Assembly (NCBI GenBank): GCA_051294375.1
Contig: CM119263.1
Coordinates: forward strand, 26,907,247 to 26,971,246
DNA length: 64,000 nucleotides
DNA from: Paraspadella gotoi
Lineage: Eukaryota; Animalia; Chaetognatha
Direction: 5' to 3'
Position numbers and translations under genes: made by a program
Shown: positions 1,811 to 38,229 of the stretch, piece after piece
How positions within the stretch are numbered: the stretch's first letter is position 1
Layout of the letters: each line of letters begins with the position of its first letter
Notes under the pieces: model-generated
The model's database searches: none
What the model was told of the DNA's origin: nothing
Seen by the model: the letters and a program-made list of their open reading frames with translations, nothing else

Positions 1811-2472
1811 TCATACGTTGCCGTCGTCGTCGTTGCTGAGTCGGCCGACCCTCTCGAACATGTTGGGATGGAGGTCGGAACTCCGGAAGGTCTTGGCGAC
1901 CCCCGCGGAGATCCCCGCCATCATCCGAGCGTCGACGCGGACTTCCTTCAGAGACGCCAGAGTCAACGCCGCCTCGTTCAGCGCCTCAAGAGGATTCCCG
2001 TCGATCCAGAGACACTTGAGGTTCAGGAGACGCCGGATCTCAACGGGGATGTCGACGATCTCGTTGTCGGAGACGTCGAGGAAGTTAAGATCCTCCAAAT
2101 GGACTAGGGGTTGGAGAGAGACGACCCCGCATCGACTGCACTTGAGGGTCTTGAGGTGACGAAGGCTGGAGAGCGGAGACAGGTCGTCCAGATTCTTGTT
2201 GAAGGACAAATCGAGCTCGACCAGGTGGTCACCGCCGATCTGGGTCAGCGCGAGAGAGTTTGGCAGGCAAAGGAGGTCTTGGTCAGCCAGGGAGAGGGTC
2301 TTCTCGCCGGCGTGCTCGCCTTGCTTCAGGCGATCTTTCAGTGCGGAGAGCGGCCAGCTGGAGGGAAGGAAGGAGGGTTAGAAAAACAACTTAAAATTAT
2401 AAGGTCTCGGTTTTTAAACAAATATTTGCATTTCATTTCTGTTAATTTTTATTTGCATATTTGTTATCTTTC

Positions 2473-2515
<43 letters not shown>

Positions 2516-5359
2516 TGATTGATTTGATTGATTTGATTGATTTGAATGATTTGATTGATTTATTTATAAAAAATAATTAATTAATTAATTAATTAATTAA
2601 TTAATTAATTAATTAATTATTTTTTATAAATAATATTTTAAATTTTTTATTTATTTCTTTCATTATTTCTGTCCGCCCTTTCTCTGTCCCTTCAACCTCC
2701 TTCTTTTCTTTTATTTCCTTTCCTTTTTTTTCTCCACCCCAACCAACCCTCACCGCTGATTAGTGACCAACGCCTCCAACTCCTCGTGGAATCCCGGATC
2801 CATAAAGTGGCAAAAGTTCTCGGCGATGTCCTTGTCCGTTTCCCTCAACAAATACAACATAAATCCGGTGTCGCTCCCTTTTTTCCGGCGAATGTTGCCG
2901 GAAAGAAAAGTAACTTGCTCATCTTTCCGGAGAAGCGGCAGGTCGTTTCCGGCCGGGGCTCCGGCGCCGAGAGTGACAACGTCGTCGAATACGTCGTCGT
3001 CGGTCGATTTCGTTTTTTTCGTCGTCGTCGTCGTCGTTTTTTCACATCCGCAGCAGTTGAGCATGACGCGACACCAGCCGAGTATTCCGTAGATGTCGGC
3101 GATGGCGAAGATGCCCACCTGGTGGTGGGATGAGGTAAAGCGAAATAAAGATTACGAAAAAAAACAAGCGAAAAATACTACTTCACTAACCAAATCAAAA
3201 TGATTCTCAGAAGAAAATTGCTGTTTAATGAATATCGAACTTGAAGCAACCAAAATCCTCTCGAACCGACTCTTTATATGCAAAGTACTAAACCCCAGTG
3301 GTCGAAAAGACCCGATCGGCCGCTGTTCCCGCATTAAAGTATTAAAGCAAGGACAAATAGGCAAATAGGCAAATAGGCAACCAGGCACTCTTGGTACTTC
3401 TTTACTATCAGTGGCTGCGCGAAGGAGCTTCCTTCTTCGTTTTTTTTTCCTCACTCTATAAAATATACTGGTTGTAACAATTTCATAATGAAAACAAAAA
3501 TGTAAATAAAATTAAGAAGAAAAACAAAAGGAATCCCGACCTCGATCAAAAATACGATCTGCAGCCACTTGGACAAGGTCGTCGTCTTGTTGACGCAGAC
3601 GTAATCCTCGGCGTCGAGGAGGTGATCATGGGACGCCGCCGGTAGATGGCAGGCGAAGAAGAAGTCGAAGTCCGACGCCGCCAAGTGCGCCACGCCCAAG
3701 ATGAACACGCCCACAACGAGGCAGAGAGACGCGAAGGATTTAATGTAGTAGGTGACGGATGAGTGAACGGACGTCTCGAGGAGGTTGGACATGGAGACCA
3801 CCTTGGATGTTGGGTGGTTGGGTGAGAGAGAGAGAGAAAGAAAGGGAATAATAGAGTAAAAAAATTAATAATAAGAAGTAAAGAAGTAAAGAATTAGAAA
3901 AAATATAAATGAGAGAAAAAACTAACGCAAATGTTCCGTTTTTGTGATTCTCATTTTTATCACAATCACCTCCTCACAAAGCGTCATCGCCTGTTCCGCT
4001 TCTTTCACGTCCATCTTCTCCTTCAACGATAACGCCTGTTATATTGAAAAGCGATCTCACAATAAGACTTTGTCAAATTGATAACATTCACAACGACAAT
4101 GTCCGTCTCACCTCGATCACGTGCTCCGATTTGGGTTCCTCTGGTTCTCCCCATCCTCTGCTCAATTTGCACTCACGACCCGATTTCCTCTCGTCCATGT
4201 ATTCCATCAGCTTCTTGACGTTTTTCCTGCGCACGGGCGTCTTGCTGCAACGTTCCACCAGATTGCCAAAGTCTTGGATCTGATCTCGGCAAACGCCCGT
4301 CCAAAGGTTGTTGACTATGACGAAGAGGATGACCTTAGGGGGGGAGAGTGGAAGGGGGAGTATATAGAGAAGAGAAGAAAAGAGAAGAAAAGAAAAGAAA
4401 AGAAAAGAAAAGAAAAGAAAAGAAAAGTAAAATAAAATAAAATACTGAGACTCTAGTCAAAATTTGTACCCCCATAAATCCATTCCTCACCTGAAAGAAT
4501 AAAAAGTAAGGAAAGTACTTTGCGTAAAGTGGCCATTGTTCGGTGCACTCTTGATTGACGAAATACATTTGCGGAGGATTGTAATCAATGGTCTTGTTGG
4601 CGGCGACGCATTGGAGGGCACCAGAACCTGAAAATTTAATTTGGGTCTAAAACTAAGGTGTTGCTTATAATATCAAAATCATTCTAATTCTCTCATTCCG
4701 TTTGTCTGTACCAGAGAATATAATAGAAATCTGATAATATTTTTGGAGATTCTCTACCGATGTATTTTGTTGATATAAAAGATTATAGATCTTTAAAATA
4801 TTTTTATAACGTCACAAATATGATTAATAAATGTGTCTCGGTATATTCACACCGCTTCACGTCCACCATCATTAGCATTCCATTGGCTCAGGGGAAACAC
4901 ACCATCCCAGGCGTTGTGTTCCATCCCACGACTTCCCTCTGCCTTGGCAAAGCGATACCGTCCTCGGGGTAACCGCGCCAATGACTGGAGGCGTCACTGA
5001 GGGTCGGACGCTCGCGAAGCAAGAGTGAGATGCCCCATCCAAATGGGCATCGTGGGCATACAAGTATCATTAAAAAAATTACATGGATTTGCAGGGAAAA
5101 GCCGGTTTGCATTATGAACGTCTTTAAACACTAGATTTTCATGAATACCCATCGCATTATGCATAATGCAAATTATATTCTGGATTAAACTAGAAACGCC
5201 ATTTTTCTAACCTTGAAAAAGATCTGCTGTGACGGAAGTGACGGATAACAACATCATGGCGTCGATGGAAAACTGTTCGACGACTTCCCACCAAGGTTTG
5301 ATGAAGTGGACAGAGTCGCCGACTTGGATCAACGACAACGCCTTCTTCATGTACGCCAT
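1811..5359 (-). CDS. LRRC8: LRRC8/VRAC-like protein, paralog B (7 exons, ~581 aa; pannexin-like TM region plus short C-terminal LRR domain)
   Basis: Phase-consistent exons 5359-5212, 4627-4491, 4333-4112, 4035-3970, 3801-3541, 3118-2754, 2357-1811. Motifs IKPWWEVV, QMYFVNQEC..LYAKYFPYFL, MDVKEAEQAMTLCEE, DTGFMLYLL..D.DIAENF and NQRWPLSALKDRL parallel LRRC8 hallmarks; the last exon has LxxLxLxxN repeats. Confidence 0.88.
4839..5051 (-). repeat. Dispersed ~220-250 bp GC-rich repeat, copy 1 (in LRRC8-like intron 1)
   Basis: Reverse complement aligns to 9022-9271 and 33991-34213 (shared ccgaccctcagtgacg, gcggttaccc, gcggtgtgaatataccg). Confidence 0.85.
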
Positions 5360-7169: not shown

Positions 7170-9725
7170 TCACACTTCCACCGCCGAGCAGCACTCCTCA
7201 ACTTCCTCCGCGATCCGTAATATCGTCAACACGTGTCCTTTGTGACTCTCTGCGTCGGCAATGGCTTCGGCTGCGTCGGCAGCAGCAGCGACATAGTCTC
7301 TAGCATAGTCTCTCGCATCGGCAAAGTCTCTAGCGGCTTCGACGCGACGAGCGAAGAGTTTGAGGTCGTGAAGCCACCAATCCTCGTAGCGCCACTCGGG
7401 AAGTTTCAAGACGTTGCCGTATTGCATTTTGAAGACGACCTGCGATGAAAAAGAAGGGGCTTGATTATGAGCGGTATTATTAGTAGTAAAGTTTATATAT
7501 ATTCTTCGGCAAAATTTTTTTTTTTCTCTTTTAAAACTAAATTTTTAGTCGACTTCAATTTCATAGCAATGGAGAAAATGCCCTCTTGAATTTAAAAAAA
7601 AAATCATTTCTCATTTATTTTCTAATCTTTCTGATATATAATAAAGTATGTACGTCGTTTCTGTTAAGTACTGGATTTTTATTTTCTTGACATATTTTGG
7701 ATTCAAGAACTTCTCACCTAATCCGTCGTGTGTTGGAAAAAAATACATTATAAAAAGAAATAAAACGCTTTTTTCCCAAATTTAGGATGCAGTGTATTTA
7801 ACTTTGTTAAAACAATTAATGAGAACCTTTATATATGTTTTTTTTTAGTTATTTTGTATGAAATTGGGTTTAACCTGTTTTCTCGGCGTCAAGGAGTCAC
7901 TTTGTTCTTCGATCCAAGTGATTTCGCTGCCTTCAGATGTCGCAAGACGAACTATCAACCTAAGAGTAAAAGATAAGTCAACAAAAGAACAGTCGACTCT
8001 GTTTACTAAAATACCTACCTCAAGTGGGTCCCGTCGTCTGAATCGTATTCAAGTTGCGCGCTGGTGACTGTCAAAGGACCGAATAGGTGCACCAGCCAGC
8101 TTAGACGAGAGATACCTGGAGTAATTACGTAATTAAGTTGAATATAGAAAAAATATAGGTAACGCGCATATCATTTAATGCAAACCATATCATACAACTA
8201 TCAAGTCGCCGTTCAGTGTTCACCCTGAAAAGAGAGGAAAACCCATGGAGTCCATGTCTCCCGAGACTTCGCGCCATGTAGAGCAGACCACTTGGAGTGG
8301 ACCCATCGACGCAACTCCGCTTTCAGACTCTTGAACTGCGTTGAGAGAAGCTCGATTTGGGACACGTAGAGCGTCACTCCTGTAGGAGCAGGGAGGGTGA
8401 AGTGGCGCGGGTGGAGCGAGGAGTTAGTGGATTGAAAATAGTCAGGAATGTTGTAGTAGAATTAATAGGATTATTGAATGAATTTATGGATGGATGGGTG
8501 GTCGGATTGTTGGATAGATGAATGAATTATGATTGGATGAATTGATTGAATTAATGAATGAAGGAATAAGAGAGAGAATAGACGAGGAGATTGATTGATG
8601 GATGGATTAAAAGATGGTTTGAAGGATGAATCAATCTATGTATGGTTGAATGGAAAGATGAAATGACGGACGGATGGATAAATGGATGGACGGCCAAACG
8701 TCTCGCCTTTTTCCTCGGCGAGCGCGTAGAGGCTTTCCGCTTCTGCGACGGAGAGAGCGAGGGGATACTCGACCAACACGTGTTTCTTCGCCTTCAAGAA
8801 TCGACGGACGAGTTGAGCGTGATTGGCAGATTCTGACATCGACCAGGCAATCAAGCAATTCGAAAGTGATTACGTTAAAGACTTTAGTCGGTTCTTTTTT
8901 TTTTTTAAACTTTATTCAATCAAATATTTAATCGAAAAGTCTTTCTAAGAATTATTAATTTAATTATTGAATTACAATCAGTCAGTCAAAAAAGTTCTCG
9001 GCAAAATAAATTGGGTATTATGGCAACAGCCGGGTTGCCTGTGATGCCCATTCGGATGGGCATCACACCCGTTGGCTTTGGGGGCTTCCGACCCTCAGTG
9101 ACGCATCCAGTCACTGGCGCGGTTACCCTAGGACGGTCTCGCTTTGCCAACGCAGAGGGAAGTCGTTAGGACTGTGGATGGGACACTACACTGGGATGGT
9201 GTGTTCCCCCTCTGAGCCAATGGATTTGGCTGAAGGATGACGGACGTGAGGCGGTGTGAATATACCGCCACAGTATAATGAAAAAAAAGCTTGAACTCAA
9301 ATACATCGTCAATCAATGAAAGAGTGGACCGGAACCCTCACCCGTGGAAATGACGACTGCGTCGGTGTGATCGGCCCGTTCCACTTCCTCCAGTGAAAAC
9401 TGATCGATGCTCTCGTAGTCGGTTTGGCTTCTTCGGGACACGATTCCTTATGTACATTTATTATATTGTTTTCCCGCTCGTTAGCAAATAATTATAAAAG
9501 TCTTTTTATATAGATTCAAAGCTATATAGATTTTGCTCATCTCACTAACTCACCGGAAAGTTCGAATCCCCTCTCTTCCGCCTCGTCCGACAAGATCGCC
9601 TCCAGCCTCGAATGTCCGGCGGAACCTAGACCAATCACCGCGAAGAACAACCGACCAATTAGATTTGACGAGGAGACGTCGGATAACTCAACGTTCGAGA
9701 CGTGGTTCTCATTAACTCGAGACAT
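7170..9725 (-). CDS. BLVRA: Biliverdin reductase A-like oxidoreductase (Gfo/Idh/MocA fold), multi-exon
   Basis: Exon translations FAVIGLGSAGHSR (Rossmann), IVSRR, ESANHAQLVRRFLKAKKHVLVEYPLALSVAEAESLYALAEEKG and GFPLFSG match BLVRA motifs (GKHVLVEYP, GFPAFSG). Middle exon boundaries are approximate. Confidence 0.85.
9022..9271 (+). repeat. Dispersed GC-rich repeat, copy 2 (BLVRA-like intron), with terminal hairpins
   Basis: Homologous to copies 1 and 3; hairpins ggcaac..gttgcc, tgtgatgcccat-tcgg-atgggcatcaca and ggcggt..accgcc. Confidence 0.85.
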
Positions 9726-10267
9726 GATTCTAATTCTTTCTATTTTTTTTTTTTGGCATAAGAAATTTTCGCGAAAGAGTTGGTTCGAAATATTGTTATG
9801 ACGGTCCCTATTATTTTTGTGGTCGTTTCGTTTGAGTATTGTTTTTCGTTTGAGTTTTTTTTTTTCCGCGTCACGAAATTAATTCCATTTAATTCGATTA
9901 GTCTGATTCAAAGATTTACAATGTTATTTCTCGCATTGTCTTCGTCGCTTTCGCTTCGTCCGTAACACAAGCCCAAAAAGCAATTGACTTTTGTCATACT
10001 TTGATATTAATCGCGACCAATGAGGGTTTATCTTATCTCACTTTTCGATGCAGTTTCACGATTTATAAGCGACGAAGTTCGTGAAAACATGTTTCTTGAT
10101 TCACTTCAAAATTCTTTCACAAAACAGTTTGAAATCACGTTGACGATTGCACCGGCAGAGTTCCGTGAAGTTTATTTCATTATTTATGTATTTTTGTTAT
10201 CTTTAAAATGGGAAGTGAGCTTTCACTGTCACAACTTAAATTACTCCGAAGAGCTTAGACGAAAGTC

Positions 10268-13048: not shown

Positions 13049-13137
13049 AATTTTCTATTACAGTCTAGCCACAATTTTCTATACATGTATTGTTTTTCAT
13101 TTTTAAAATTATATAGCTGGCTGCTACGTATCAAAGA
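13049..13137 (+). repeat. 89-bp direct repeat, left copy, flanking the LRR-kinase-KEN gene
   Basis: aattttctattacagtctagccac...ctacgtatcaaaga; matches 18375-18463 apart from one substitution. Confidence 0.95.
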
Positions 13138-13491
13138 GAATTTGATAAATGTTGTTCACCAATTTGAGATTATTTTTAAAAAAATTTATTTGAATAAAGA
13201 CAAAATTACAACAACATAAATTTACAAGAAATACAATAATGAGTCTATGAATTAACTATACCTCATCCCACATCAACATGAATACAAACATTTTAACAGG
13301 ATTTTTAAAAAAATTATTAGGTGAAATAAAAAATATTAATCGCTTTTCCATTATACTATATACTAAATATCTGAAAATCATTCATCAAATTAGCTATGAC
13401 AGAATTAATTCTAAATTATGATGCAATAATTTTTGTAATCTATATTATGGAAAAGATAACCAAACAATACCCTATCAAAAAACCAACTCCT

Positions 13492-16400
13492 CTACTCTCC
13501 AGCAAATTTTAGCTCAAATATATAATCTTGAAACGGGGTCTGCAAAATTTTTGTCCTCAAACCAATTCGTTTGCCATTGAGCAAAACTTCGGCGTCTTTC
13601 AACTTCTTTCTTGCCTTCCCAACCAAAGGCCCAACCAAAGCCTGAACGTTGTAAGTTTCCTTGAAAGGGATGACCTCGACGGAGCCATGGTCACCGACTC
13701 TAATGCGGGCTTCCGACAAAGTCATCGTCAATTTCGATTCATCAATGGTCGGCGGAAAGTTTTTCATGTCTTCGTCCAAAGATGGAAAGACAATTCCGGT
13801 TTCGTCGTCCTTGACAACCACCCTCGCCAAGTCGATGCCGGAAAAATTCTCCCGCGCGATTTCGATAAGACGCGTCTTTAGAATGGGGACGGGAATCACC
13901 GTTCGATCGTCGGGAAATTCGAGTCGTATCGTCCTCGCAGTGTGAACACCAGACGGCCTTAAGAAGCTGAGACGAAGCTCAATGGCCGAACTGCTTTGTG
14001 CCGGTTCCAAGCACGCTTCTACGAAAGCTTCCTTCTCATAGGCATCGTAGGTCGCCACGAAATCTTCGTTGGTCGACTCTACTCGGCCCATCTGCTTGAG
14101 CACGGAGAGACAGTGGCAGTAAAAGAAAGGAAAGGGGACGAGGAGGCAGTAGAAAATCTCCATTGGCAACGGATCCTTTTCTACGCTTCCGCATAATCGA
14201 CGGAAAACATCGCCGTTTCTACTTTGGTGGGCGTGATGCACCACGTTGCGCGAGAAGCGTAGCAAACCGGCGAAAGACGAGACGCGGTAGCCGCGACCGC
14301 GACTGGCGAACGTTTCCAGCAGGCGTCGGTCTATATGTTTATGCCAGGCGCCCAGTCCACCGATCACCAGTCCTGAGTTCATCTCGGCATGAACTCGTTC
14401 CCTCTCATCCGCGCCTTCAATCATCAATTCATTAAGGAGCCCAACGTCGAGGATCTTTGACGACATGCTCAAAAGCGCCGGGCAATTGAGGGCATCGCTG
14501 GCACTGAATCCTCGCTCAGTGAGGCATCTGACCAGAACTCGAATCTCAACGTTTTCAACTCGATTAGTTTCTCCGCCGGCGATGGAGATTATGACATCGC
14601 TGGAGGCAACCAAGTCAGTATTGATGTCGTCTGTTATTGGAATACTCTCGGCTGCTGAAAAATCGCATAACTTAAGCGTAAAGCTCTCACCATGAATCTG
14701 CAGGTATAAACTGTCCATGTTGACTCGATTATGGTGGATTGGAGTTTTGAGCGTATGAAGATAGTCCATGGCTAACATGAGCTGTTTGATAAGCTCAATG
14801 CGTATTGAATGTAGTTGAAGCCCATTTTTTTGAATATTGATGGACTTCACAAAATTTAGCAGACTTTGATCCGTTGCTTCAAAAAACAGATAACCGTTAT
14901 ACTCAAGAAACGGGTTCCAAGCATAAAAATACGATAACAATTTGAGAACATTCTGATGATTTAGCTCCAAATGTATTCCGAGTTCTTTCTCATATTGTCT
15001 TTTACTTGACAAGCGACGATTGAGGTCACTAGGATAGCGACGGCGTAGGTAAAGAAGATAGAAATACAAAGACAACCAAAATATTGTTATCAACACCCAG
15101 ACTGTTCCTATGGTCAATAGAATAACAGGGGACACGGTGCCTATAATCCAACATGAGTGATAAGCACTTTCAATGGAATTGTCTTTACAAGAGATTATTT
15201 GTGATCGAGACCTATGAAAGTTGTAAAGATATTCCACCAACATACAATTATCGCAGTTAAATGGATTATTGCTCAGATTCAATTTCACACCTTTTAAGTT
15301 TCGTAAGTTAATAGGAATCGTCGCTAAGTTGTTTTGATATAAGTTTAATCTTTCTAATATTTTCATTTGAGAAACGGCTTTTTCATCGATATAAGATATT
15401 TGGTTAAAGGAAACATCTAGTTGTGTAATTCGATTTAAGGAGTCCGACAATGTCAACTCGGTCAAGTTGTTGTAGGAATAACTTAGAACTGTACCAGGAA
15501 AGGGAATACANNNNNNNNNNCTACGTTTCTTCTTAAAAGCACAATTAATAAAAAGCTGTCTCTGCCATTCTTCAGCTATATGGCATTGACAACCATCTGG
15601 ACAGCAGGGCAGAATATTTTGAGTGAATAGGTAATACATGAGGTCTTTGTTTTCACAATTACATATCCATTTATTGTTATTTAATTTAATATACTGAATC
15701 ATTTTTAAAGTTTTTATATCACTTTTGGATAGCGTTTTTAAACAGTTAAACCTTAAATCAACTGATTTAGGTAATGAACCTTGGGCAAAAACAAGAAAAC
15801 CTATATTTGTTAAAAAGTTGTGTTTTAAACATAATTCATATTCACATTCTGTTTTTTCAAATTTTCCAAGGTCTGTTTCACTTATATTGTTATGGTCTAA
15901 AAAAATCCTAATGTTCGACTTAGCTTTACAATTGAAATAAACTTCACCTAAATTTTGAATTTGATTTTTACCGAGGTCGAGCCAAGTAAGCGCTAAATTT
16001 TGTTCATGAAAAGATTTCAGTCTATTTTTTCTTAAAATTAGGCTTTGTAACCATTTAGAATTAAGTGAAAAAGGAGGGATGGTTTCTATAAAATTTTTAC
16101 TTAGGTCTAACAAGTTGATATAGTTTAGATGAAGATTTAAATCAGTATAATTAGAAATGTTATTTTGACTTAAACTTAATTGGTTTAAATTTACTAATCG
16201 CACCATCCAGTTTTTAGGCATTGATGTTATTCTATTAGAATTAAGCTGGAGAATCTTCAAATTACGGGTAGTGTTGAAAACTTGTTTCGGAAGAGAAAAA
16301 AGGAAATTATTTTCTAAATTTAATATTTGCATTATATGTTGATGTTCAAATAAAGTTTCGGGAACATTTACGAGGCGATTGTGAGCCAAATTAACGTTTT

Positions 16401-17534
16401 GTAGGAATTTTAAATTGTTAAATAAAGCAGCAGATATGCTTTTTAATTGGTTATTTCGTAACAAAAGGGTTCGTAAATGGATTAACTCGACAAAAGCAAA
16501 CTTGTGGATGAAAAACAAACGATTAAAACTTAAATCCAAGTAAGTAGTGCCACCCAACCTATGAAATGTTAGGTGTTCAATTCGATTCAAATTTAAATTC
16601 TTTGTAATAATGAGTCTGAGTATAGAACGATAGGCAAAGATCCTTTCTTCAATTTTCGCCAAACAGCCTTCAATTGTAAGCGTTAACATGCGTCCAGTTT
16701 TTTTGAATGCTCCTTTGTCCAAATTCAATTGTAAACTCTTATTTTTATAAAATCGTCCGCAACCCAAGATGATTTTGAGTTCAGGTTTACGTTTACTTCG
16801 TCCTTTCATAAAGGAAAAGGCATGCTGACTTATGTTTTGAATTGGGTTACCGAGAAGCGACATAGTGTAGGTGTTTTTAAGTAGCTTGAAAGTGTTTTCA
16901 GTTATATTAGTAAGTAAATTGTTATCTGCATGTAAATTTCTCAAACTAGTTCGATTCTCAAAAGGAAATTCTAATTCTCTGATCGAATTGTTATCTAGAA
17001 TTAAATGAGGAAAATGTTTTGAAGCATTATAACGAAAAAATATTTTTGAAGTAAAATTTGTTAAATTGTTTCCGGTCAGGTCGACATAGTGTAACATAAC
17101 GTTTTTTTCAAATGCATCAATTGATATGTTTAGTTTAACATTATATAATAAAACTAGTTTTTGGAGAAACTTTAGGTTTTCGAATGTTGAAGAAGATATG
17201 TTCATCGATACATTTTCAGTAATGAAGAGATATTGTAGAGAATTAAAGTTTTTGAAAATTCCTTCATTAATTTCACTAATGTTATTATTTAATAATAAAA
17301 GACCTAAAAGATGACTTGGAGTTTTAAAAGTATTTTCTCTCACACTTGATATATTGTTATGAGCAAAAAAAATTCCCTTAAGATTTGAAAACCCTTGAGA
17401 AAAAGCGTCTTCTAGACGTTCCAGACCTAAATGTGAAAAAATCAGCGTCATCGAACTATTATGTATGTCTTTCATTTTAAATTCTTGAAGAGTAGTTGAA
17501 TCATTCATCATAGCTTGTGACAATACCGAGCAGC
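13492..17534 (-). CDS. Single-pass receptor: Toll-like LRR ectodomain + TM + degenerate kinase + KEN RNase (IRE1/RNase L-like) + possible ubiquitin-like tail; main coding exon
   Basis: 1343-aa ORF with >20 LRRs, internal Cys clusters (NNKWICNC..CPDGCQC) and juxtamembrane NPFNCDNC. TM segment WIIGTVSPVILLTIGTVWVLITIFWLSLYFYLLYL followed by RRR. Kinase remnants ELGIHLELNHQNVLKL, YLHT..IHHNR, LKLCDFS. KEN motif WHKHID...GYRVSSFAGLLRFSRNVVHH...PFP. Splice acceptor at 17535-17536; start/signal-peptide exons probably upstream (~17600-17765, uncertain). A 10-N gap lies at 15511-15520. Confidence 0.85.
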
Positions 17535-18374
17535 CTGAAAAAAAAGAAAGTGAAATCCAATATACGTATTTCGCTATTTTCTTGTGTAAATTATTGTACC
17601 TTCATTTATTAATTCAGAATGATAATGAACATATGCTTAACTGAAATAAAAATACTGAGTGGATACACGTGATAGTGAATGAATGAATGAAAGAATGAAT
17701 GAGTGAATTAATGAATTTGAAAACTTACTAAAGTGAAAAATGGTATATTTGAAAATTTTCCTCATTTTTAATTTTTTTTACTAAAATCTAATAAAATTTA
17801 TAATGGATAAAAGGTTGTCAAACATTTTAACCTGGCTTTTTTCGAAAGTTGATGTCTGGAATATTAGAGTCAGTTCTCCATCCACAGCTCCAAAGATCCA
17901 AGCTAGTGCCTTGGTCATGCAGAGGCGTATATATACAAGATATTCTACAAGAATTTTGAGCAATGTTCAAATCAGGTTCACGCATCCTAAAAATTGAAAG
18001 ATTCAAATCTAAATTGACGCTTTCTTTGTTTATCGATCTTGTTTTTAAATTACCTGATATTTTTTGAATGTAGTTTTTTCAGTGCGTCTAAGACTTCCGA
18101 AGTTTTTGAGTAAATCAAAAAGTCGAGTCCCCACGTTGTCGATAATAAAATCATTGTACCAAAAATAACGAAAAATTTTGCTGCAATTAAAGACATTTTC
18201 TCTCGTTTACAGAAGAAAGAAACAAATAGATGGAAACACTTTTTTGATCATCGCGTGATCAAGAGGCGATCTCGAAGAACGATCTCTTTCTACATTTGGG
18301 CACTCTTTTCCGAAAGCGCCTCATTTCTCTTCCTTAATCCCTGAATCGAACTTTAATTAAAGTTCGATTTTTCA

Positions 18375-18463
18375 AATTTTCTATTACAGTCTAGCCACAA
18401 TTTTCTATACATGTATTGTTTTTCATTTTTAAAATTATATAGCTGGTTGCTACGTATCAAAGA
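18375..18463 (+). repeat. 89-bp direct repeat, right copy
   Basis: Matches 13049-13137 (ggctgc versus ggttgc). Confidence 0.95.
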
Positions 18464-18518
18464 TAATTAAAATTAATAATTAAATTTAATAATTTAATAA
18501 TTAAAATTAACTCAAATA

Positions 18519-18966: not shown

Positions 18967-19786
18967 ATGTCGACGTCCATTCTGCCGATAGGTTTGATCG
19001 GCCTCAGCGACATTGACGATCGCCGACCAAACTACCGACTAATGGCGGTGACGGCGCTGCTTTGCTGTTCTCCCTGCGGGTTCGTTCAATCGAAATCCAG
19101 TCCGGAAATAACGAAATCGTGACAAACATGGAGTTCTCGGTTTTAGCGAACGGAATCATAAATGTTTTGTTCGTTTGCGACCAATAGTTAAAATAGTATA
19201 TCGAGATACATACAGAAAAACACAAAAATTATAGTTATACAAATAAAAAACTATAAATAATACGTTAAAATCAAAAACCGTACAATATCTAAAATAGTAA
19301 ATATTTTTGCCTGATTTTCCACAATTTCCTGTTCAGAATCATTTCCTGCTGTTATTCCCTTATGTCTGATGCGTCGTCAGAATCAGGAAAACCAGGTGAG
19401 TCAAAAAACCTTACTCCGAAGACGCCCATTAATTGTTTCTTTACAATATTTATAGTTATTTAGTATATAAAACTGGTACAACCAATATAAAAATTATCCA
19501 TTCATTTAACTTTGGACGACAGGCTTTGGTGGTTTCAGGCCTCAATCAAAATTTACAATAATTTTACTATAAATAAAAAAATTTTTTCGATTCAAGAGGG
19601 GTGGTATTAATTATTTTAATTTTAGGAGAGGCGCGCCAACGAGGCAAGATGGCTTGCTACTGGGCAATAGCCGCTTACATCTTTACTTTCATCTTTTTAT
19701 GTGGCGCCATCTATTACGTCAAATTTCTCAAGGACGACGACGAAGAGGATGACGCAAAAGTGACGACGATGGCACCGAACGGTTGA
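18967..19786 (+). CDS. CD225/dispanin (IFITM/PRRT/SynDIG family) small membrane protein, 110 aa
   Basis: Phase-consistent exons 18967-19079, 19337-19395, 19626-19786 give ...RRPNYRLMAVTALLCCSPCGIISCCYSLMSDASSESGKPGEARQRGKMACYWAIAAYIFTFIFLCGAIYYV. This follows the CD225 pattern (NY...LLCCxPxG...YS...G...A...A + TM). Confidence 0.85.
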
Positions 19787-20106
19787 GAATCGAGCTGCTG
19801 CTTTGTATTTTTTACTGCTATATTTATGGCATTATTTTAACCAAAAATATATGAATTGCTTTCGTTTGAATATCGTGTCTGATATTTCCGGTTCGACTTT
19901 TAACACATAAAAACGTTCGTTTTTCGCTCACTAAATTTCCTTATTTGTGGTGTCTTGCGCTTTTTAACTCGTTTAATCCGTTCAATTTTTTATTAAAAAT
20001 CATTTTAAAAATGAGTTTTTTATTATATGAAATTGGTACAACTAATATAAACATTAGAAGAAGCGATACAATATTTATTCAATGAAACAGCTCAGGGTAT
20101 ATGCAA

Positions 20107-23100
20107 CTAAAGTTTAAAAAGAAGGTTAGCTGCGAGAACCAAAGCGCCATCTTCGATTTTGAGTTGATGATCTTTTATCTCGATCTTTCCGCCTTTAATG
20201 TTGGGAAGTTCAATACCCTTAGCGCCGAATCGGTTCAGAGCCGCCAACCCATATCGCTGCGCCGCCATGTTGATAAAACTGAAAGAAGGGGAAAACAAAA
20301 GGACAATATTGATTAAGCATTACGTAGATGTAAAATTTTGTAAAAACAAGATTAAGTTGGATATCTCAGAGAGAAAAAAATTGCTTAGTTATCTTTGAAT
20401 TTTAAAAATTTACTTTATTATTGTCAATTTGTAATAAAGAAAAAGAAACTAACCTTCTAATTTGTTGCTCTTTTGATTGTGAGATCGAAGGTCGAATCAG
20501 ATCAACGTTGACATTAACATTGGAGAAAGTGAAAGTGAGACGCCGCCCATCGGACGAGAGAGTCGGCATGGCGGAGATCTGGCGGGAACAAAAGGGAAAC
20601 AGGATTTAAGTAATAATCAATCATTAGTTAGAAAAATAGAACAAATAAGAGAAACTCGAGAATGATATGCCTATTGCGTACAGTAAAATCTCTCTCTTTT
20701 TATTGTCATATTTCTCATCTCAAGTTGTCCCGTTTTTGTTTTTTTTGCTCGCGGCCGTGGCCAACACGTACTATTTATTGGTCTTTGTATTTAAATTGTT
20801 TTATTTTCTTATATTTTTATGGGGATAATATTCAACAAAATCATTACGGCATTCCATTCCATGCCTTGAAAACATTGACGTTTTAATTTTTATAATAACC
20901 TTTTCTAAACACCCATGCAAAATCTTATTATCTTTATTTTTTTCAACTTTTTTAATCTCTCGCTTTTTTATCTTGTTTCATGTTTTTTGCTTCTTTCTTC
21001 CTCTCTTTCTCTCCCTTATTAACGAACCAATGTTGACCCATCCGCTCTCACCGTTGCGTTGACGACGACGCTGACCAACTCGTTCAGTCTCCCCGCGACA
21101 TCTGCGACGACTTTGACTTGAGCGCCTCTGACGTCGAGAGTGAGACCTCTGGCGGCGGAAAAGAACATCTTGGGAGCTTGGGCGACGTCGAAGTTGAAGG
21201 CGGCGGAGGCGGAGCCGCAGGAGGGGTTGCCCTGGCAGAATTGGTCTGAAGGATGGAAAGTTCGGAGGTGAAAAGGTGATTAATGGTTATTTCGTTAATT
21301 CAAGTGTTTGTTGGATTTTTTGAAATTTTTAGTCATATTTCAAAATTATATGCATGTAGCAATATCATCAGTAGTCACAGGTAACTTTTTTATTCCATCC
21401 AAAGTATGATAAAACTTTTCTTTCTTCATTAAAATAAAATCAACAAAAATAATACCAAAAAAATAAACAACCTACAAAATTAAAGAAAAACTAACATATA
21501 CCTTATAAACAAACAAAAAATAATGAATAATAACAACAAAAAACAGATGAAAACAAAAACAAACAACGAAACGACCACCAACCCCCCCCTTTTTACCGAG
21601 AAGCCTTTTGACGGACTGTTCCTTGGCGATGTCCCCCGTGGAGAAGCTCTGCCTCGCGAGGCCCTTGGAGTGCGCCGAGTAGAGGAGGGAGTTGGCAACG
21701 AAGTCGCTGATCACGAGGTAGAAGTGTTTCGACGATCCGGTGGAGGGCGTTGGGGAGACGGAGAAGGGGAAGTTGGAGACGGAGTTGGGGACGGGGTGGA
21801 CTTCGCCGCGGAACCTGGAGAAGAGAGAAAGATGGATTTGATGGATGGATAGAGAGATAGATAGGTAAATAGAGAGAGATATATATATGCACTTTATGCA
21901 GAGGGATAGAAAGGCGAGGGATAGATACTTAAATCATAGAGGGATAAATATGAAGATAGATTTATAGGTAGACAGATATATAGATTGATAAAAAGATATG
22001 CCGATAGACAGAAGGATAGATTTCTATATATAGATAGAGAGATAGACAGATTGCTATCTACATCTACAAATATGCATTTATAATCAGATAGATACGTTGA
22101 TTGATACTGGAAAATAAACAAAATTAATAATATTTAGTTGGCGTTCAATGATTGAGCCCTGATTTTCGGATCGACCCCTGACAGCCGAAAAAAAAACCTC
22201 ACCTGAGGTTGGTGAATCCGTTCCCGTACTGCGGATCGAGTAGGCCGTAGTCGGCGAGGAACTCTTGGCCTTCGATGTCGAAAGTGTCGCTCGTCTTCAT
22301 GTTGGGGAAGATGCCGGCCGACCAATCGTGGAGAGCGCGGCCGGCGGCGGAGCAGACTTGAGGCGGGATCATGGCTTCGATCTTGCCTTTGAACCGACCT
22401 GATTGGGACAAAGGATGGATCTGTTGAGATCTCTTTCAAATAATCAATAATTAGAGATATTTTTTAATGAATCATTAAGTAAATAAATAAAATAAATAGG
22501 CCAATCGATAAAACACCTTCCTATTTATGCCTGAAATAAACCGTGAAGGATTTAAATCTCCAAATCATTTATCACCTGCGATAAAGTTGTAGAGCCAAGC
22601 GAATCCCGATCCTCTAATTTTCACTTTGACGGAATCGAATTTGGCGCAATCGCTGCGCAACGCAGATGTCGGAAAAACCGCCAATTTTCCTGTAAACGAA
22701 GGCGAAATTAAATCATTTCTAAAAACAGAAATATATATACATACAATATATACAGCAGTCCCTCAGCTTAGTATCAAATTTTTACAGCGAAGCGACCCTT
22801 TTTTTTTAAATCCTGAAATGCGACTGTATACTCAAATTTTCACCCAACCCCCCGGTTCCAAACTTCCCCCCGTCCCTTACTCCCTCTCCCCCCTCAACCT
22901 TTACAACTCTCACCGTTAGTGGTCGTGGGCTTCAAGGTGGCAGCGAACCTGAGTCTTTTGGAACTCAACATCGAAATAACCGTCGTCGCTGACACGAAAC
23001 CATTTTCTTTTGTATCTGTACCACCAATCGGCGCGCATGTCCAAGTGATCGAAGCTCAGTTCCCATTGGAGACCCTGGAGACAAAGGACAAATGAAGAGT

Positions 23101-23830
23101 GAATAAGACTCAAAAAAACGTGAGATGAAAGGTTGAAAGAGACGAGAAAAAATGACGATAAATAAATAACGATAAATAACGATTAGAAAAAAAAAGTAAT
23201 AAAAATTGAACCTCGCAAATAAAATTAATTATTAACTATTAAAAGAAAATGAAAATTAAAGTTTACGAAAACAGAAACAAAATAGAAATAAACATATTCG
23301 AATAAATGTAAACAACAACATTGGTTGCTTAGTAATACCGCTGTGGTGGGAGTGATCTTCGAAGGTCCCACTACGACTCGAGTCAATCGGACGTTGGTGA
23401 CGCGATAATCCGCGTGATTTTTGTTTCCGGAAAAATTCGGGATCGACAAACTGTTTATCTGAAAATGAAACAAAAATGTTAAGTTAAAAGTGTTTTGTTT
23501 TGTTTTGTTTTTTAAATGGTAATTTTAAACAAATTTATAAATTAAGAGTGATGAACTACGAATTTTCAACCTTCTGATTAATGACGGTCTTGAGAACAGA
23601 ATTAATGTAGTTGAATCCATTCGCCGTCACTTTGGCGTGGATGGCGCCGTTGGGATTCGAACCGCTGCGCCGTGGGGAATTTTAAGTTGTTTAAATTTAA
23701 TCATATTAAAACTATTAAAACTCTTATAAGTTTTGTAGGTATTTGAGGTATTCTACCTGCAATAACCAAGCGAAAATATCACAACGATTCCAATCGCAGA
23801 GATCGCGAAAAAATGCAATTTAGTCGCCAT
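20107..23830 (-). CDS. BPI/LBP-family (TULIP) secreted lipid-binding protein, copy 1, multi-exon
   Basis: Signal peptide MATKLHFFAISAIGIVVIFSLGYC, then NPNGAIHAKVTANGFNY, LSIPNFSG, WLYNF, PPQVC, ADYGL, ISDFVANSLLYSAH, ending GIELPNI...LVLAANLLFKL*. These are typical BPI/LBP two-barrel features. Confidence 0.85.
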
Positions 23831-24250
23831 CGTGTCGAGGAGTGAATCTCTTCGAAAGTTGTGAATTCCTGTTACGTTCACGCCGATATTTAAATTCTCT
23901 ATCGAAATTTCGCGAAATCCGCGATGATTAGTTTTACATCCTCCTCCTCTTCCTCTTCCTCCTCCTCTTCCTCCTCTTTCTTTTTCTCCTTTCAGTGACG
24001 ACACTTGAGGGGGGGGGCCATAACTCGAAAACAAGGATGAACTTTGGAGCGAAAACTTTATTTAAAAAGGGTCATCAGGAACTAAAATGTTTTAAAGAAA
24101 AAAGAAAAAAAAAAACGAACCCGGATATACAAGATTGAAGGTTCAGAATGTATTTTTAGTAGCAGCAGTAAATTCAATGAAACGGCGGGAAAAACAATAT
24201 CGTGTGAATAACATTGTCGGGATGACCTGTCTATTTCCCTATCTTTACTT

Positions 24251-24318
<68 letters not shown>

Positions 24319-24335
24319 TCTCATCATCTCTCTCT

Positions 24336-27687
<3,352 letters not shown>

Positions 27688-28646: not shown

Positions 28647-28992
28647 CACTTTTTCTCCTCTTTTTATCCATCTGTCACCAACAGTCCTTCTGCGACTTTA
28701 ATTAAAGATTTTTTTGTAAAAAATCCGATTAAGATTTTTCTTTACTCCATAGTATTCTAGCGATCCCCAGAATATTCTTAAATAATAAGATTGAGCAGTA
28801 CCCCGTTCCAACGTCGCTATTGCTGACTGAACGCCGGACAGCGCCGCCTGGAATCGGTTCCTCAAAGCCTCGACCGGCGTTGATTTGTCGCCGGCGCTCT
28901 CTTCCGGCGCCACGAGACGCAGACTACGCAGTCGATCGTCGACGACGTCGATCTTTTCGCGACGACGGCTCAACAACTCCGTGCGGAGGTCC
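27931..28992 (-). CDS. 3' exons of an uncharacterised helical/coiled-coil (possibly spectrin-repeat-like) protein; upstream exons lost in gaps
   Basis: Four GT-AG exons splice in frame: DLRTELLSRRREKIDVVDDRL...ALRNRFQAALSGVQSAIATLER / ...IEDLQDSIG... / GRQFIESKRNNEKVRLLVNSQLANLEDSYLSLQ / ATSQQIKVLLDY...HV*. Confidence 0.6.
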
Positions 28993-30579
28993 TGAAAGGA
29001 GGAGGAATGAAAGCATTGGCGAGGATGATAATTAGACTTGTTGAGACTTGACCCATAATGATGAGAGAAACTTAGAGAAAGCGATGAGGGGGTGAAAGTC
29101 ATGGACCAAAAGGAAGACAAAATAAAAATTAATGATTGATTTTCCTGGCCTCTTTCATCAACTGACAAATAAGTTTTTTTTTTACTTTTAAGTCGGTGCC
29201 GTTTACATTTTTGACGACTCAATCTCATCTCTAATAAAACGTTGNNNNNNNNNNNNNNNNNNNNNNNNNNNNNNNNNNNNNNNNNNNNNNNNNNNNNNNN
29301 NNNNNNNNNNNNNNNNNNNNNNNNNNNNNNNNNNNNNNNNNNNNNNNNNNNNNNNNNNNNNNNNNNNNNNNNNNNNNNNNNNNNNNNNNNNNNNNNNNNN
29401 NNNNNNNNNNNNNNNNNNNNNNNGCTGGGTTCACGTTGCTCCTTTATCAAAAATAATAGCAACGAACGAAAAAGAAAACCTTTTTTACCACAGATAACGA
29501 AAGTGATGAATAACAAAAGCNNNNNNNNNNNNNNNNNNNNNNNNNNNNNNNNNNNNNNNNNNNNNNNNNNNNNNNNNNNNNNNNNNNNNNNNNNNNNNNN
29601 NNNNNNNNNNNNNNNNNNNNNNNNNNNNNNNNNNNNNNNNNNNNNNNNNNNNNNNNNNNNNNNNNNNNNNNNNNNNNNNNNNNNNNNNNNNNNNNNNNNN
29701 NNNNNNNNNNNNNNNNNNNNNNNNNNNNNNNNNNNNNNNNNNNNNNNACAAAGTGTGGAACTTTTACTATTTGGCCTTGATTTTGATATGGGTATGGAAT
29801 TACCGGGTTTTCAAACTCTTTCTGTACTTTTCTTTAAAAAAATTATTTGAAGTAATAGAACCTTTTATTTTATAATAAAAATTGGTATCAATGTAAAATA
29901 ATGTTTCAAGAACCAAATTCATTCATTGCAATCATGAATCAATCAATGAATGGCTCTTAAGGGACCCTTTAGCAATTGCGCTCAGCTGCAATGAGCCTTG
30001 AGCTACAGCATTGATGTGTTTAGCGAAAAAATAATTGTTCGCCCAAGTTGATAGGTGTATCATTTATCTATTTCCAGCATTATATTTATTTATTGAGTCA
30101 TTAACAAATCCATAGTGCCAGGATAATTTAATAAATTGGATTTCCCCCTAGTTTTTCCTCTTTGACAAATATCCAAAAAGCAAGAATTACTCCATTAATT
30201 AATCAATAAGAAACGGAATCTCGGTGTCAAATTAAAGGCAAGACCCAACAGATTACAAATCTAAATTTATTCTNNNNNNNNNNNNNNNNNNNNNNNNNNN
30301 NNNNNNNNNNNNNNNNNNNNNNNNNNNNNNNNNNNNNNNNNNNNNNNNNNNNNNNNNNNNNNNNNNNNNNNNNNNNNNNNNNNNNNNNNNNNNNNNNNNN
30401 NNNNNNNNNNNNNNNNNNNNNNNNNNNNNNNNNNNNNNNNNNNNNNNNNNNNNNNNNNNNNNNNNNNNNNNNNNNNNNNNNNNNNNNTGGCACAAAGGTA
30501 TAGTATAGTATTAGTATAGTAATTACGCCATTAGATGAGGAAAAATAATTTTTTTAATCAACAAAGATGGTTTAATAAT

Positions 30580-34000: not shown

Positions 34001-37000
34001 GCCGAGATGGGGCATCTCACTGTTGGCTTTGGGGGATTCCGACCCTCAGTGACGCCTCCAGTCACTGGTGCGGTTACCCTAGGACGGACTCGCTTTGCCA
34101 ACGCAGAGGAAAGTCATTAGGAATGTGGATGGAACACAACGTGTGTTCCCCCTCTGAGCCGATGGATTTGGCTGTAGGATGGTGGACGTGAGGCGGTGTG
34201 AATATACCGCCACAACGTATCGTTTAAAAATCAGAGTTTACCACAGTTGGCTTTTCACAGATTATACGATCCCGACGATGGACAAGTGACCTTGGATAAC
34301 GTCAACCTAAAAAATTTAAACGTCGATTGGTTACGAAATCAGATTGGTAACCGATGATGATTTTTTTTCGGTCGGGAGGGGAGAATATTTCTCCTCGTTG
34401 GTAATTCGTTCAGGAGTCGTCTCGCAAATGCCGACAATGTTCTCCGGCACCATTAAAGACAACATCGCTGGTAACATTGTAAATCCCAGCATGGATAAAA
34501 TCAAAGAGGCCGCAAGCATGGCCAATATTCATGAGTTCATAATGGCTCTGCCGCAAAATTACGACACAATGGTAAGTGCTATGGTAAGATCGAGTTACAA
34601 AACAGACAGAGATTAATGACAGTAATGACTATGGTGCCCGTCGAGATGGGTGAAGGTGGCGGCGGATTCTCCGGCGGCCAGAAACAAAGAATTGCTATCG
34701 CCAGAGCCTTTTTGATGCGTAATCCCAAGATTTTGTATTCTCGACGAAGCGACCAGCGCGTTGGACAACGAGAGCGAGAGGGTCGGTGCAAAAGGCACTG
34801 GAAAAAGCGAGAAAAGGTTTGCGCAATAATACTTTGCCAAATTGTTTCTTTCGTTTTCCTTCAACGAGCATTTAGCCACTATAGTTTACAAAATTGGTCT
34901 CCTGTCCCAAATGCGCTTAATATTTTTCGGTGGTGTAGCTGTTTATCTCTTCCAAAATTTCAACTAAATTAATTGCGCTTGAGGCAATCTCACTTAAAAA
35001 AAACTAAAACAGAATTATAATGCGGTTTTTTTTTGTGACTAAATAACGTATGTTATAATAGTTACAGGGAAATCAATTTTTTATAACAGGTTCTCATCTC
35101 GAGAGTCTTGATGCAAAAAAATATACTTAATTTTTTTGATGCCTTACTTTATTACTTTTTTCCCAATGAATTTTTAAAGATTAATTGTTTAATTTTTTTT
35201 TAAATTTTTTCCAAAAAATTGAAACAAAACTATATCTATACCAGTTTTTAATTTTAAAAGGGCTTTATTTAAATTTAATAATTTTTAAATATTTTAAAAT
35301 TGTAATACTTAGCTTAATGCTTCAAATTTTAATTATTTTTTGGACCTAAATGAGGCCCTTTTTTAATTTTATTGGTATTTGTTTGTTTTAAATTTGAAAA
35401 AAAGAAAAAAAAAGTAATTTAGGGCCTTAAATGATAAATTTCGAAGCAAAAATTTAATAAAAGTTATAACATTCAAAGAGCGAAAAAGTTATTAATAAAC
35501 GACACAATTATATAAGAAAGGTTTTAAAAGTCTATAATTGAATTTTGCAATGTTGTTAGGATACGGCGGAACCGCATCTAATTTAGAGTTTTTTGGGAAC
35601 CCAATTCACTCAATGTTATTTTTTTTTTTCGACAGGGCGCGTACGCACACCCTTCTATTGTATCGCTCATCGTCTCAGGCAACCATCACGAGACGCAGAT
35701 GATTATTATCGTCCGACCTTAACAACTGGGAACACATTGCGAAATGTGGAGAATCTATGACCCAACTCAATGACAAATCGAGGAATTGCTATTAACGTCC
35801 GCTGAATCTGGTGTTAGGATGTAGATACAAAAAACAATGGCCGAGGGACATACGAAAAACAAAAAATGAGAAAAATTTTTTCAACGACTCCCAGGTCAAC
35901 GTACGTGTCTCAACGAAGGCCGGACGACCCGAACGCTAGAGCAGACATCAGAAACAATATCTCCCAGACTCTGAACTTTTGCCTCAGGTACCAGCAATTG
36001 CTGAGTCCTTCGACCGTCGTATATTGGGTGATAACAGTGGGCCAAAGTCGTTTGACCACCATCGCCGAAGGATCAATAAATGATCTCCGAGAACCGGGCG
36101 GAGATATCGACGAGGAAGTCGACGAAGGTTCGACAGCCCAATCGAGGCGCGGGAAAATAAGAAAACGAAAAAAAAAACAAATGATATAATTTTCAGTTTT
36201 GCCCCGCGTGCGGAGGCCTTTGCGTAGAAAGGAAGAAACGATTCAATTAAAACAAACGATCTGATGTGTAGGATGTTGAGAATGTGCCGAGAGACGGATG
36301 CCCTTTTGACTCTCGCTCCATCTTGTTTTGTGATAATGACCTGTCGACTGCACGAACACGCCTCGTTAAACGCTCTCTTCATTTTATCCTAAATATAGGT
36401 TTGAGTGAGATGAAATTCATTTTTTTTTCCCCCTTTCTTGCTCGCATTCATCCTTGTTCAGGCCCTCTGTCCGATCCCAAAAAAAACAAGCGATTTCCCA
36501 AAGCCTCTCCTTGGATCTGGTGTCAAGGAGGATTGGCCATTGGTAGTTGCATCAGGTTTCTGGATAGCATTAATTGATAAAAGCATTTCCAGCAAGAGCC
36601 TCCTCCCACCCTACGTTTTCTACACAGCATAACCCTCTCTATCTATCTCCTGACAAAATGCTCCCAAAATCTGACGCAACGCCTCCGAAAGCTGGCCTTT
36701 CGCGCGATCATCCACCAGACACAAGAGTGGCACGACGACCCGGACCACTCCACGGCCCACGTGACTGCTGCTCTTCAGAAAGCGGGCGAGTTGGCGCCCG
36801 CCCTCGTTTTCGAATTCTTCGTTTTTATCATCGAGTCGACGAGCGTTTGTCTCTGCGCCTTCATCCTCGCCCTTGCCATCGCCTGGATGATCGGCCTTCC
36901 TTTTCTCAGTGAGTCTCTCCCTCGAAATCAAATAATGGACGAGCATGTGAATTTACCGAATGATTTTGACGAATTCCTATTTAATTAACAGTTCTCATAC

Positions 37001-38185: not shown

Positions 38186-38229
<44 letters not shown>

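Follow-up and report, generated by a model that had tools for sequence, protein, structure and literature searches.

A predicted chaetognath membrane protein joining a Toll-type leucine-rich-repeat ectodomain to a pseudokinase-KEN ribonuclease module

KEN ribonucleases (RNases) are gated by endoplasmic reticulum (ER) stress in IRE1 and by 2',5'-oligoadenylate (2-5A) in RNase L, and animal Toll receptors signal through TIR adaptors. We analyzed a 64,000-nucleotide stretch of the Paraspadella gotoi (Chaetognatha) assembly GCA_051294375.1 (contig CM119263.1, positions 26,907,247 to 26,971,246 of the forward strand; here called the window and numbered from its first letter), in which a minus-strand gene is predicted to encode a leucine-rich-repeat (LRR) ectodomain of Toll-type layout, one transmembrane (TM) helix, a kinase-like domain, a KEN domain, and a ubiquitin-like (Ubl) tail.

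IRE1 (ERN1; human structure 6w3k, yeast structures 3fbv and 2rio) is a single-pass protein in which a luminal unfolded-protein sensor is followed, on the cytoplasmic side, by a kinase fold and then by KEN. RNase L (4o1o, 4o1p, and 4oav) combines a repeat sensor with a pseudokinase and KEN but is cytosolic, its ankyrin repeats binding 2-5A; in the accessible part of PMC10400998 it is described as confined to jawed vertebrates, and the accessible part of PMC4718504 has its pseudokinase binding ATP canonically through conserved residues and thought to scaffold dimerization. The definition of the cysteine clusters of multiple-cysteine-cluster Toll-like receptors (mccTLRs) was taken from the available sections of PMC6224433. 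KEN partners in a HEPN survey (PMC3710099, available sections) are kinase, ankyrin, CCCH, UBI, and BRCT domains, with no LRR or LRR-TM partner listed there, and the same sections report expansions of solo KENs, without a kinase, in Oikopleura and monocots.

Domain composition of the predicted protein

Positions 17601-13492 of the minus strand form a single stop-free frame that reads through a 10-base N gap. The part 3' of the gap stays open by itself for 672 codons, and shuffling it 2,000 times gave no open run longer than 217 codons. Pfam matches, hydropathy, and the absence of stops along this frame bear out what the original prediction had read there, namely, an LRR ectodomain, a TM helix, a kinase-like domain, and KEN in one frame; the pair of cysteine clusters inside the ectodomain, the stretch of basic stop-transfer residues, and the KEN motifs that it had quoted were likewise all found in the sequence. 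The stretch it had singled out, 13492..17534, is open as claimed, but 17534 is a splice acceptor, the frame is the last exon, and the signal peptide comes from two upstream exons that had been missed; its list of domains was also incomplete, with the Ubl tail and the N gap overlooked. The three-exon gene model (GT-AG ends, consistent phases) yields 1,446 amino acids, and the product is, by its sequence, a predicted type-I single-pass membrane protein (Table 1).

The ectodomain resembles that of the Drosophila-type mccTLRs in its succession of signal peptide, long LRR block, internal cluster pair, short LRR block, juxtamembrane cluster, and one TM helix, with at least two C-terminal clusters and an internal N-terminal cluster within the LRRs. 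Unlike mccTLRs, the protein has a shortened internal C-terminal cluster and no TIR domain (no Pfam match in it or in any of the 23 aligned rows of its family, described below); because the family definition needs TIR, the protein, judged from its domains, is not an mccTLR. Among the sequence matches of the ectodomain in the PDB, generic extracellular LRR proteins predominate (LRRC15, IGFALS, and LGR4/5) and the first Toll-like receptor entry is at rank 14 of 148, so that the Drosophila-type layout that had been proposed stands for the arrangement of the cysteine clusters, and "Toll-like" would fit the layout of the ectodomain only, not a proven descent from Toll. LRRs extend from the cap to the membrane, in the place of the luminal domain of IRE1. 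No ankyrin repeat was matched by Pfam in the protein, which, unlike RNase L, carries a signal peptide and a TM helix.

The cytoplasmic part has the order found in IRE1, a kinase fold followed by KEN. The Pkinase match (E = 9e-9; 35.5 bits, with a cut-off of 31.7) is limited to profile positions 41-153 of 263, positions 1-40 and 154-263 being unmatched, and in a motif table the domain, unlike the active Ser/Thr kinase of IRE1, lacks the glycine loop, the catalytic Asp, the DFG Gly (the position reads DFS), and the activation segment. By these motifs it looks more degenerate than the RNase L pseudokinase; its nucleotide motifs are lost, and it probably does not bind ATP.

Pfam Ribonuc_2-5A (PF06479) matched the post-gap protein with an E value of 2.3e-5 at about 24.9-25.5 bits (cut-off, 23.3) and the KEN stretch searched alone at 27.6 bits (gathering score, 23.3); searched alone against PDB sequences, the KEN stretch gave no match. 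With the family profile, 15 of 15 PDB matches at E ≤ 0.01 were IRE1, the top match by sequence profile and by structure, and the KEN sequence was nearer to IRE1 (E = 3.7e-5) than to RNase L (E = 0.32). Pfam, profile, fold, and family evidence thus agree on the KEN identity first proposed, and only its extent, previously ~14100-14470, had to be corrected, to about 14020-14454. The predicted catalytic residues Tyr, Arg, Asn, and His, within an Rx4-6H motif, lie at offsets 0/+13/+14/+18 with an additional Arg at -4, the same spacing as Y1043/R1056/N1057/H1061 and R1039 of yeast Ire1, in keeping with the earlier suggestion that these residues are retained. In yeast Ire1, H1061 and Y1043 are the acid-base pair, R1056 and N1057 are assigned to the phosphate, R1039 is assigned to RNA binding, and the RNA-binding surface is composite over two protomers (PMC3149027, accessible part).

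An AlphaFold2 model built with the 23-row alignment had a mean predicted local distance difference test (pLDDT) value of 85.6 and a predicted template-modeling score of 0.81, whereas single-sequence AlphaFold reached a pLDDT of only 34.5. In the model the KEN fold is packed on the kinase C-lobe. VIA-align placed IRE1 first (Z = 17.7; root-mean-square deviation [rmsd], 3.9 over 294 residues, spanning human IRE1 587-963 at 17% identity) and RNase L second (Z = 16.4; rmsd, 4.0 over 286 residues), with the next-best fold at a Z of 12.6; in a wide structural search, IRE1 and RNase L tied at Z values of 16.4 and 16.0, above 10.9 (RNase L, 16.0-16.4 overall). The Foldseek rows listed through rank 47 were all IRE1 (best E = 5.5e-9), ISG15 coming next. 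A homodimer prediction, in which the alignment was not used, scored 0.00 and speaks neither for nor against a dimer.

The last ~165 residues form the Ubl tail, which IRE1 does not have; together with the kinase-KEN fold it accounts for the cytoplasmic part. Foldseek aligned the tail to the di-ubiquitin-like ISG15 over 179 columns (E = 2e-6; rmsd, 12.2), and the second Ubl domain matched the parkin Ubl with a Z of 10.7 (rmsd, 2.2 over 73 residues). The tail shares a Ubl fold with ISG15 and OASL, the latter ending in two Ubl domains (PMC10400998, accessible part), but it is only 8-18% identical, lacks a C-terminal diglycine, and is fused behind an RNase. Relatives match Pfam ubiquitin weakly in the tail. 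A search of the Atlas gave no match for the tail and, for the post-gap protein, only sub-0.9 LRR-kinase clusters without KEN; a viral structure library gave generic ubiquitin and kinase matches only.

Compared with these systems, the protein is not a Toll, an IRE1, or an RNase L; in its working it would come closest to an IRE1 or RNase L fitted with a Toll-type sensor. A full-text literature search, with most subscription papers lying outside it, found no description of this architecture, and the original prediction likewise knew of no characterized protein of this kind. The main text of PMC10400998, as far as accessible, has no mention of LRR, leucine, or transmembrane, and the drawings in its Fig. 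2 could include LRR-KEN proteins.

A divergent family and its RNase site

The cytoplasmic part was searched with phmmer (E ≤ 1e-3) against 1.84 billion protein representatives and gave 31 matches, of which 22 were retained as a family. Nine were discarded, P0009 as a repeat protein and P0022 and P0028-P0034 as ordinary kinases (P0034 from its sequence, without a Pfam scan). In the 23 aligned rows, the window protein included, Pfam at E ≤ 0.05 called Ribonuc_2-5A in 19, Pkinase in 9, and LRR_8 and ubiquitin in 2 each. Identity within the family is about 25-35%. It surfaced only through the exhaustive HMMER search: word-based protein searches with the full-length range, with the kinase-KEN part against longer proteins, and with the family alignment returned no relatives, and neither did metagenome locus scans.

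Two relatives, P0004 (1,393 amino acids; E = 3e-25) and P0007 (1,457 amino acids; E = 2e-19), have the complete or nearly complete order LRR-TM-kinase-KEN-tail in a single open reading frame. P0007 aligns with the window protein in one high-scoring segment over residues 75-1184 (24% identity; E = 1e-74) and shares its shortened pair of internal cysteine clusters, whereas P0004 is without the internal pair. P0006 begins with an LRR remnant (not called by Pfam), a cysteine cluster, and a TM helix. In P0006 and P0008, repeated degenerate kinase or helical modules precede one motif-bearing KEN. Each of the remaining 19 relatives either is a fragment or begins inside the kinase or shortly ahead of it, with its sensor lying outside the sequence; 19 of the 22 were traced to ENA, Logan, and JGI/IMG contigs of 1-6.6 kb. 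P0020, on a 1.2-kb contig, is filed in a bacterial metagenome-assembled genome and is probably a binning contaminant. A different sensor was found in P0046 (1,599 amino acids on one contig; P0019 cluster), in which an LRR-Roc module comes first, then two hydrophobic helices with a Thr-rich loop between them, and then the pseudokinase-KEN-Ubl cassette seen in the window protein. The sequences of P0043 and P0019 depart from P0046 at a shared point, which would fit an intron or a frameshift. A family tree of 16 rows (7 low-coverage rows left out; no outgroup) does not place the window protein. From its sequence, the window gene belongs to a divergent, unannotated family, likely one of receptors.

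A row scan keyed on Arg-Asn covered the active-site motif in 19 rows, the window protein included: Arg-Asn was present in 19/19, His in 18/19, and Tyr in 14/19. The catalytic-loop Asp of the kinase, in comparison, is kept in 1 of the 11 rows covering that position, and no row reads DFG; because of this difference the family is, by its residues, one in which the RNase site persists and the kinase site is gone. It is nevertheless conceivable, though improbable, that KEN is weak or inactive and that the protein acts as a scaffold, signaling through the pseudokinase and the Ubl tail, for instance by recruiting ubiquitin-binding partners. The retention of the tail in several relatives, the variable Tyr, and the extra degenerate modules of P0006 and P0008, which lack the RNase motif, fit such a role; the near-invariance of His at so low an overall identity does not, and in Ire1 it is the catalytic His that is worth a rate gain of at least 3e5-fold, the Tyr contributing only about tenfold (PMC3149027, accessible part).

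Proposed function

We propose, with a probability only slightly above one-half (about 0.5), that the protein is a defense receptor in which ligand-driven clustering pairs the KEN domains and switches on RNA cleavage without TIR signaling. The LRR ectodomain would face the outside or the endosomal or ER lumen and bind the ligand, and its clustering would assemble the two-protomer RNase site, as in Ire1. The pseudokinase would be a nucleotide-independent spacer or scaffold, with the ectodomain, and not ATP or phosphorylation, as the switch. Cleavage of host or pathogen RNA would arrest translation or kill the cell, and the Ubl tail may restrain the enzyme, recruit partners, or set turnover. We infer the RNase activity, the ligand, and the gating by dimerization, and with them the chain from ligand through clustering and KEN pairing to RNA cutting, from IRE1 and RNase L. 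Circumstantial pointers to a putative immune role are the Toll-type layout, the adjacent LBP/BPI-family genes, the high divergence, and the swapping of sensors seen in P0046.

The greater likeness of KEN to IRE1 than to RNase L, together with a topology identical to that of IRE1 (luminal sensor, one TM helix, and kinase-KEN), would also suit an RNase in signaling or housekeeping, in which an endogenous ligand, developmental or of luminal stress, leads not to the cleavage of bulk RNA in defense but to the cutting of selected transcripts, in the manner of IRE1 during splicing and regulated decay. The window protein even keeps Arg at the position of the RNA-binding R1039 of Ire1. Arg or Lys is found there in only 3 of 19 family rows, however, and the divergence, the repeated modules of P0006 and P0008, and the sensor swapping of P0046 may suit conflict systems better; we consider such a role unlikely, if a serious alternative.

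Several observations weigh against a defense receptor with an active, IRE1-like RNase. In 5 of 19 rows, P0007 among them, His or Gln takes the place of the catalytic Tyr, and the window protein, which sits on a long branch (1.67), has Gly before the LLR motif of the KEN helix, where 14 of 19 rows have Asp or Glu. The kinase N-lobe is degenerate, with pLDDT values of <50 at model residues 1-16 and 43-58; in IRE1 the N-lobe helps to build the active dimer, and gating may consequently differ from that of IRE1. The PDB matches of the ectodomain are not Toll-specific, and a Toll layout does not prove an immune role because Tolls also act in development. The pointer from the LBP/BPI neighborhood rests on one locus. 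Lastly, GC content at fourfold-degenerate sites differs sharply between the ectodomain and KEN plus tail, most neighboring exons being higher still.

The locus, its neighbors, and their meaning

The coordinates of the features are collected in Table 1. A same-species run, X1, was available as contigs only (same species label; RNA by the guess of the search tool). One X1 contig covers 18053-18219, that is, exon 1, and another observation in this run is the spliced joint of intron 2; splicing of intron 1 and a transcript spanning the whole gene were not seen in the X1 contigs. Exon 3 is mostly without cover among the 8 of 472 X1 contig pieces listed, which is no evidence on expression. Two joints at a depth of 16.6 connect, in this order, 17407, 14869-14921, and 14133. 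The likeness is 80%, the sides are 33 and 29 letters long and separated by unknown letters, and joints of this kind can be false; they possibly come from the transcript of a diverged paralogue over the LRR start, the kinase, and the KEN end. Exon 2 has a weak positional match to the N terminus of P0007 (11/37 identical; E = 0.07).

Table 1. Features of the receptor gene and its flanks (positions in the window)
Feature	Position	Strand	Basis or remark
94-bp direct repeat, upstream copy	18375..18468		gene sits between both copies
Exon 1: start codon and predicted signal peptide	18054..18196	-	hydropathy peak at residues 1-19; GT donor
Exon 2: Cys/Trp-containing N-terminal cap	17832..17986	-	AG/GT ends, consistent phases
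Intron 2, 297 nt	17535..17831	-	spliced joint, CT..AC ends, one run X1 contig, depth 2.9
Exon 3, 4,043 nt: ectodomain, TM helix, entire cytoplasmic part	13492..17534	-	open frame, gene model
Long LRR block (limits approximate)	15679..17390	-	Pfam LRR_8, E = 7e-42, 14 stretches
Internal LRR C-terminal cysteine cluster, shortened	15601..15678	-	sequence; same short form in P0007
Internal LRR N-terminal cysteine cluster, holds gap	15502..15603	-	sequence; equal Cys spacing in P0007
10-N assembly gap	15511..15520		in the internal LRR N-terminal cysteine cluster
Second LRR block, short, 3-4 repeats	15271..15501	-	Pfam LRR_8, E = 1.6e-6; motif scan
Juxtamembrane LRR C-terminal cluster, four cysteines	15151..15270	-	sequence
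Single TM helix, then basic stop-transfer	15049..15150	-	hydropathy ≤2.29 over 19 residues
Truncated pseudokinase	14455..15015	-	partial Pfam match, motif table, structural alignment
KEN (Ribonuc_2-5A) RNase domain	about 14020..14454	-	Pfam, IRE1 profile matches, fold match
Predicted active site	14233..14289	-	Tyr 14287-14289, Arg 14248-14250, Asn 14245-14247, His 14233-14235
First Ubl domain, predicted	13735..13992	-	strand-helix pattern of model, ISG15 match; model residues ~355-440
Second Ubl domain, without C-terminal diglycine	13495..13722	-	model residues 447-520
94-bp direct repeat, downstream copy	13049..13142		98% identical to 18375-18468

A frame that runs over an N gap, a direct repeat on both sides of the gene, and fourfold-site GC of 0.24 (48/199) before the gap compared to 0.61 (91/149) in KEN plus tail (P = 4e-12) could point to a decaying pseudogene or to a chimera made in assembly. 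LRR_8, the TM helix, Pkinase, and Ribonuc_2-5A all lie 3' of the gap, however, and their order is therefore independent of it; P0007, although only 24% identical, aligns in register across the gap with equal Cys-to-Cys spacing. Fourfold-site GC moreover climbs gradually along 13495-17511 (0.24, 0.38, 0.49, 0.47, 0.65, and 0.58), being lowest in the long LRR block (0.24) and highest in KEN and tail (0.58-0.65). With no stop in 1,339 codons, intron 2 spliced, and the same architecture present in independent proteins, an artifact is very unlikely. A recent local fusion as the source of the GC shift was rejected because relatives at 24-25% identity have the same domain order. Fourfold-site GC in neighboring exons is mostly 0.8-0.9, with some near 0.5.

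The copies of the 94-bp repeat are 5,326 bp apart, with a 26-bp palindrome just inside (18344-18369), and no third copy was found in the 64-kb window. The repeat may be the trace of an event in which the gene unit was inserted or duplicated.

Directly upstream of the receptor gene lie apparently two tandem LBP/BPI-family genes (about 20100-27000, minus strand), one exon matching Pfam LBP_BPI_CETP_C and the second copy having been read by eye; run X1 shows splicing of the nearer of the two (depth, 42.7). Between it and the receptor the plus strand carries a small transcript that is spliced (19393-19976; GT..AG joint at 19393-19624; depth, 2.2). A minus-strand exon at about 8550-9900 encodes a Gfo/Idh/MocA oxidoreductase (E = 5e-12) that we take to resemble biliverdin reductase A. 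An LRRC8-like gene (about 1850-5350, minus strand) is suggested by a first-exon Pannexin_like match below the cut-off (E = 1e-4) and a short LRR exon; the accessible part of PMC9399500 reports LRRC8 genes from chordates and one cnidarian. The GT-AG introns and the LRRC8-like and LBP/BPI neighbors would, taken by themselves, indicate an animal. Fragmentary ABC-transporter exons lie among several N gaps at about 34500-39400 on the plus strand. A CIS_tube match at 28698-29810 (minus strand; 19.5 bits, under the cut-off of 27), in an open reading frame that is largely N gaps, is probably spurious.

Beyond the single gene, we suggest tentatively, and with a little less than an even chance, that a mobile pseudokinase-KEN-Ubl cassette replaced TIR on Toll-type ectodomains and also joined an LRR-Roc sensor, giving a class of pattern-recognition receptors in animals, so far undescribed, in which RNA destruction is the direct response to an extracellular or luminal ligand. 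If this is true, the coupling of a Toll-type ectodomain to a KEN RNase would give animal immunity a direct path from receptor to effector. One protein would then do, with no second messenger, what the OAS-2-5A-RNase L pathway does, and it would be a natural template for ligand-gated RNases. The kinase-KEN module would then have been recruited to new sensors more than once; a recruitment of sensors is argued for the ankyrin repeats of RNase L in the accessible part of PMC10400998. Such receptors may be one way in which RNA decay could serve defense in invertebrates that have no RNase L.

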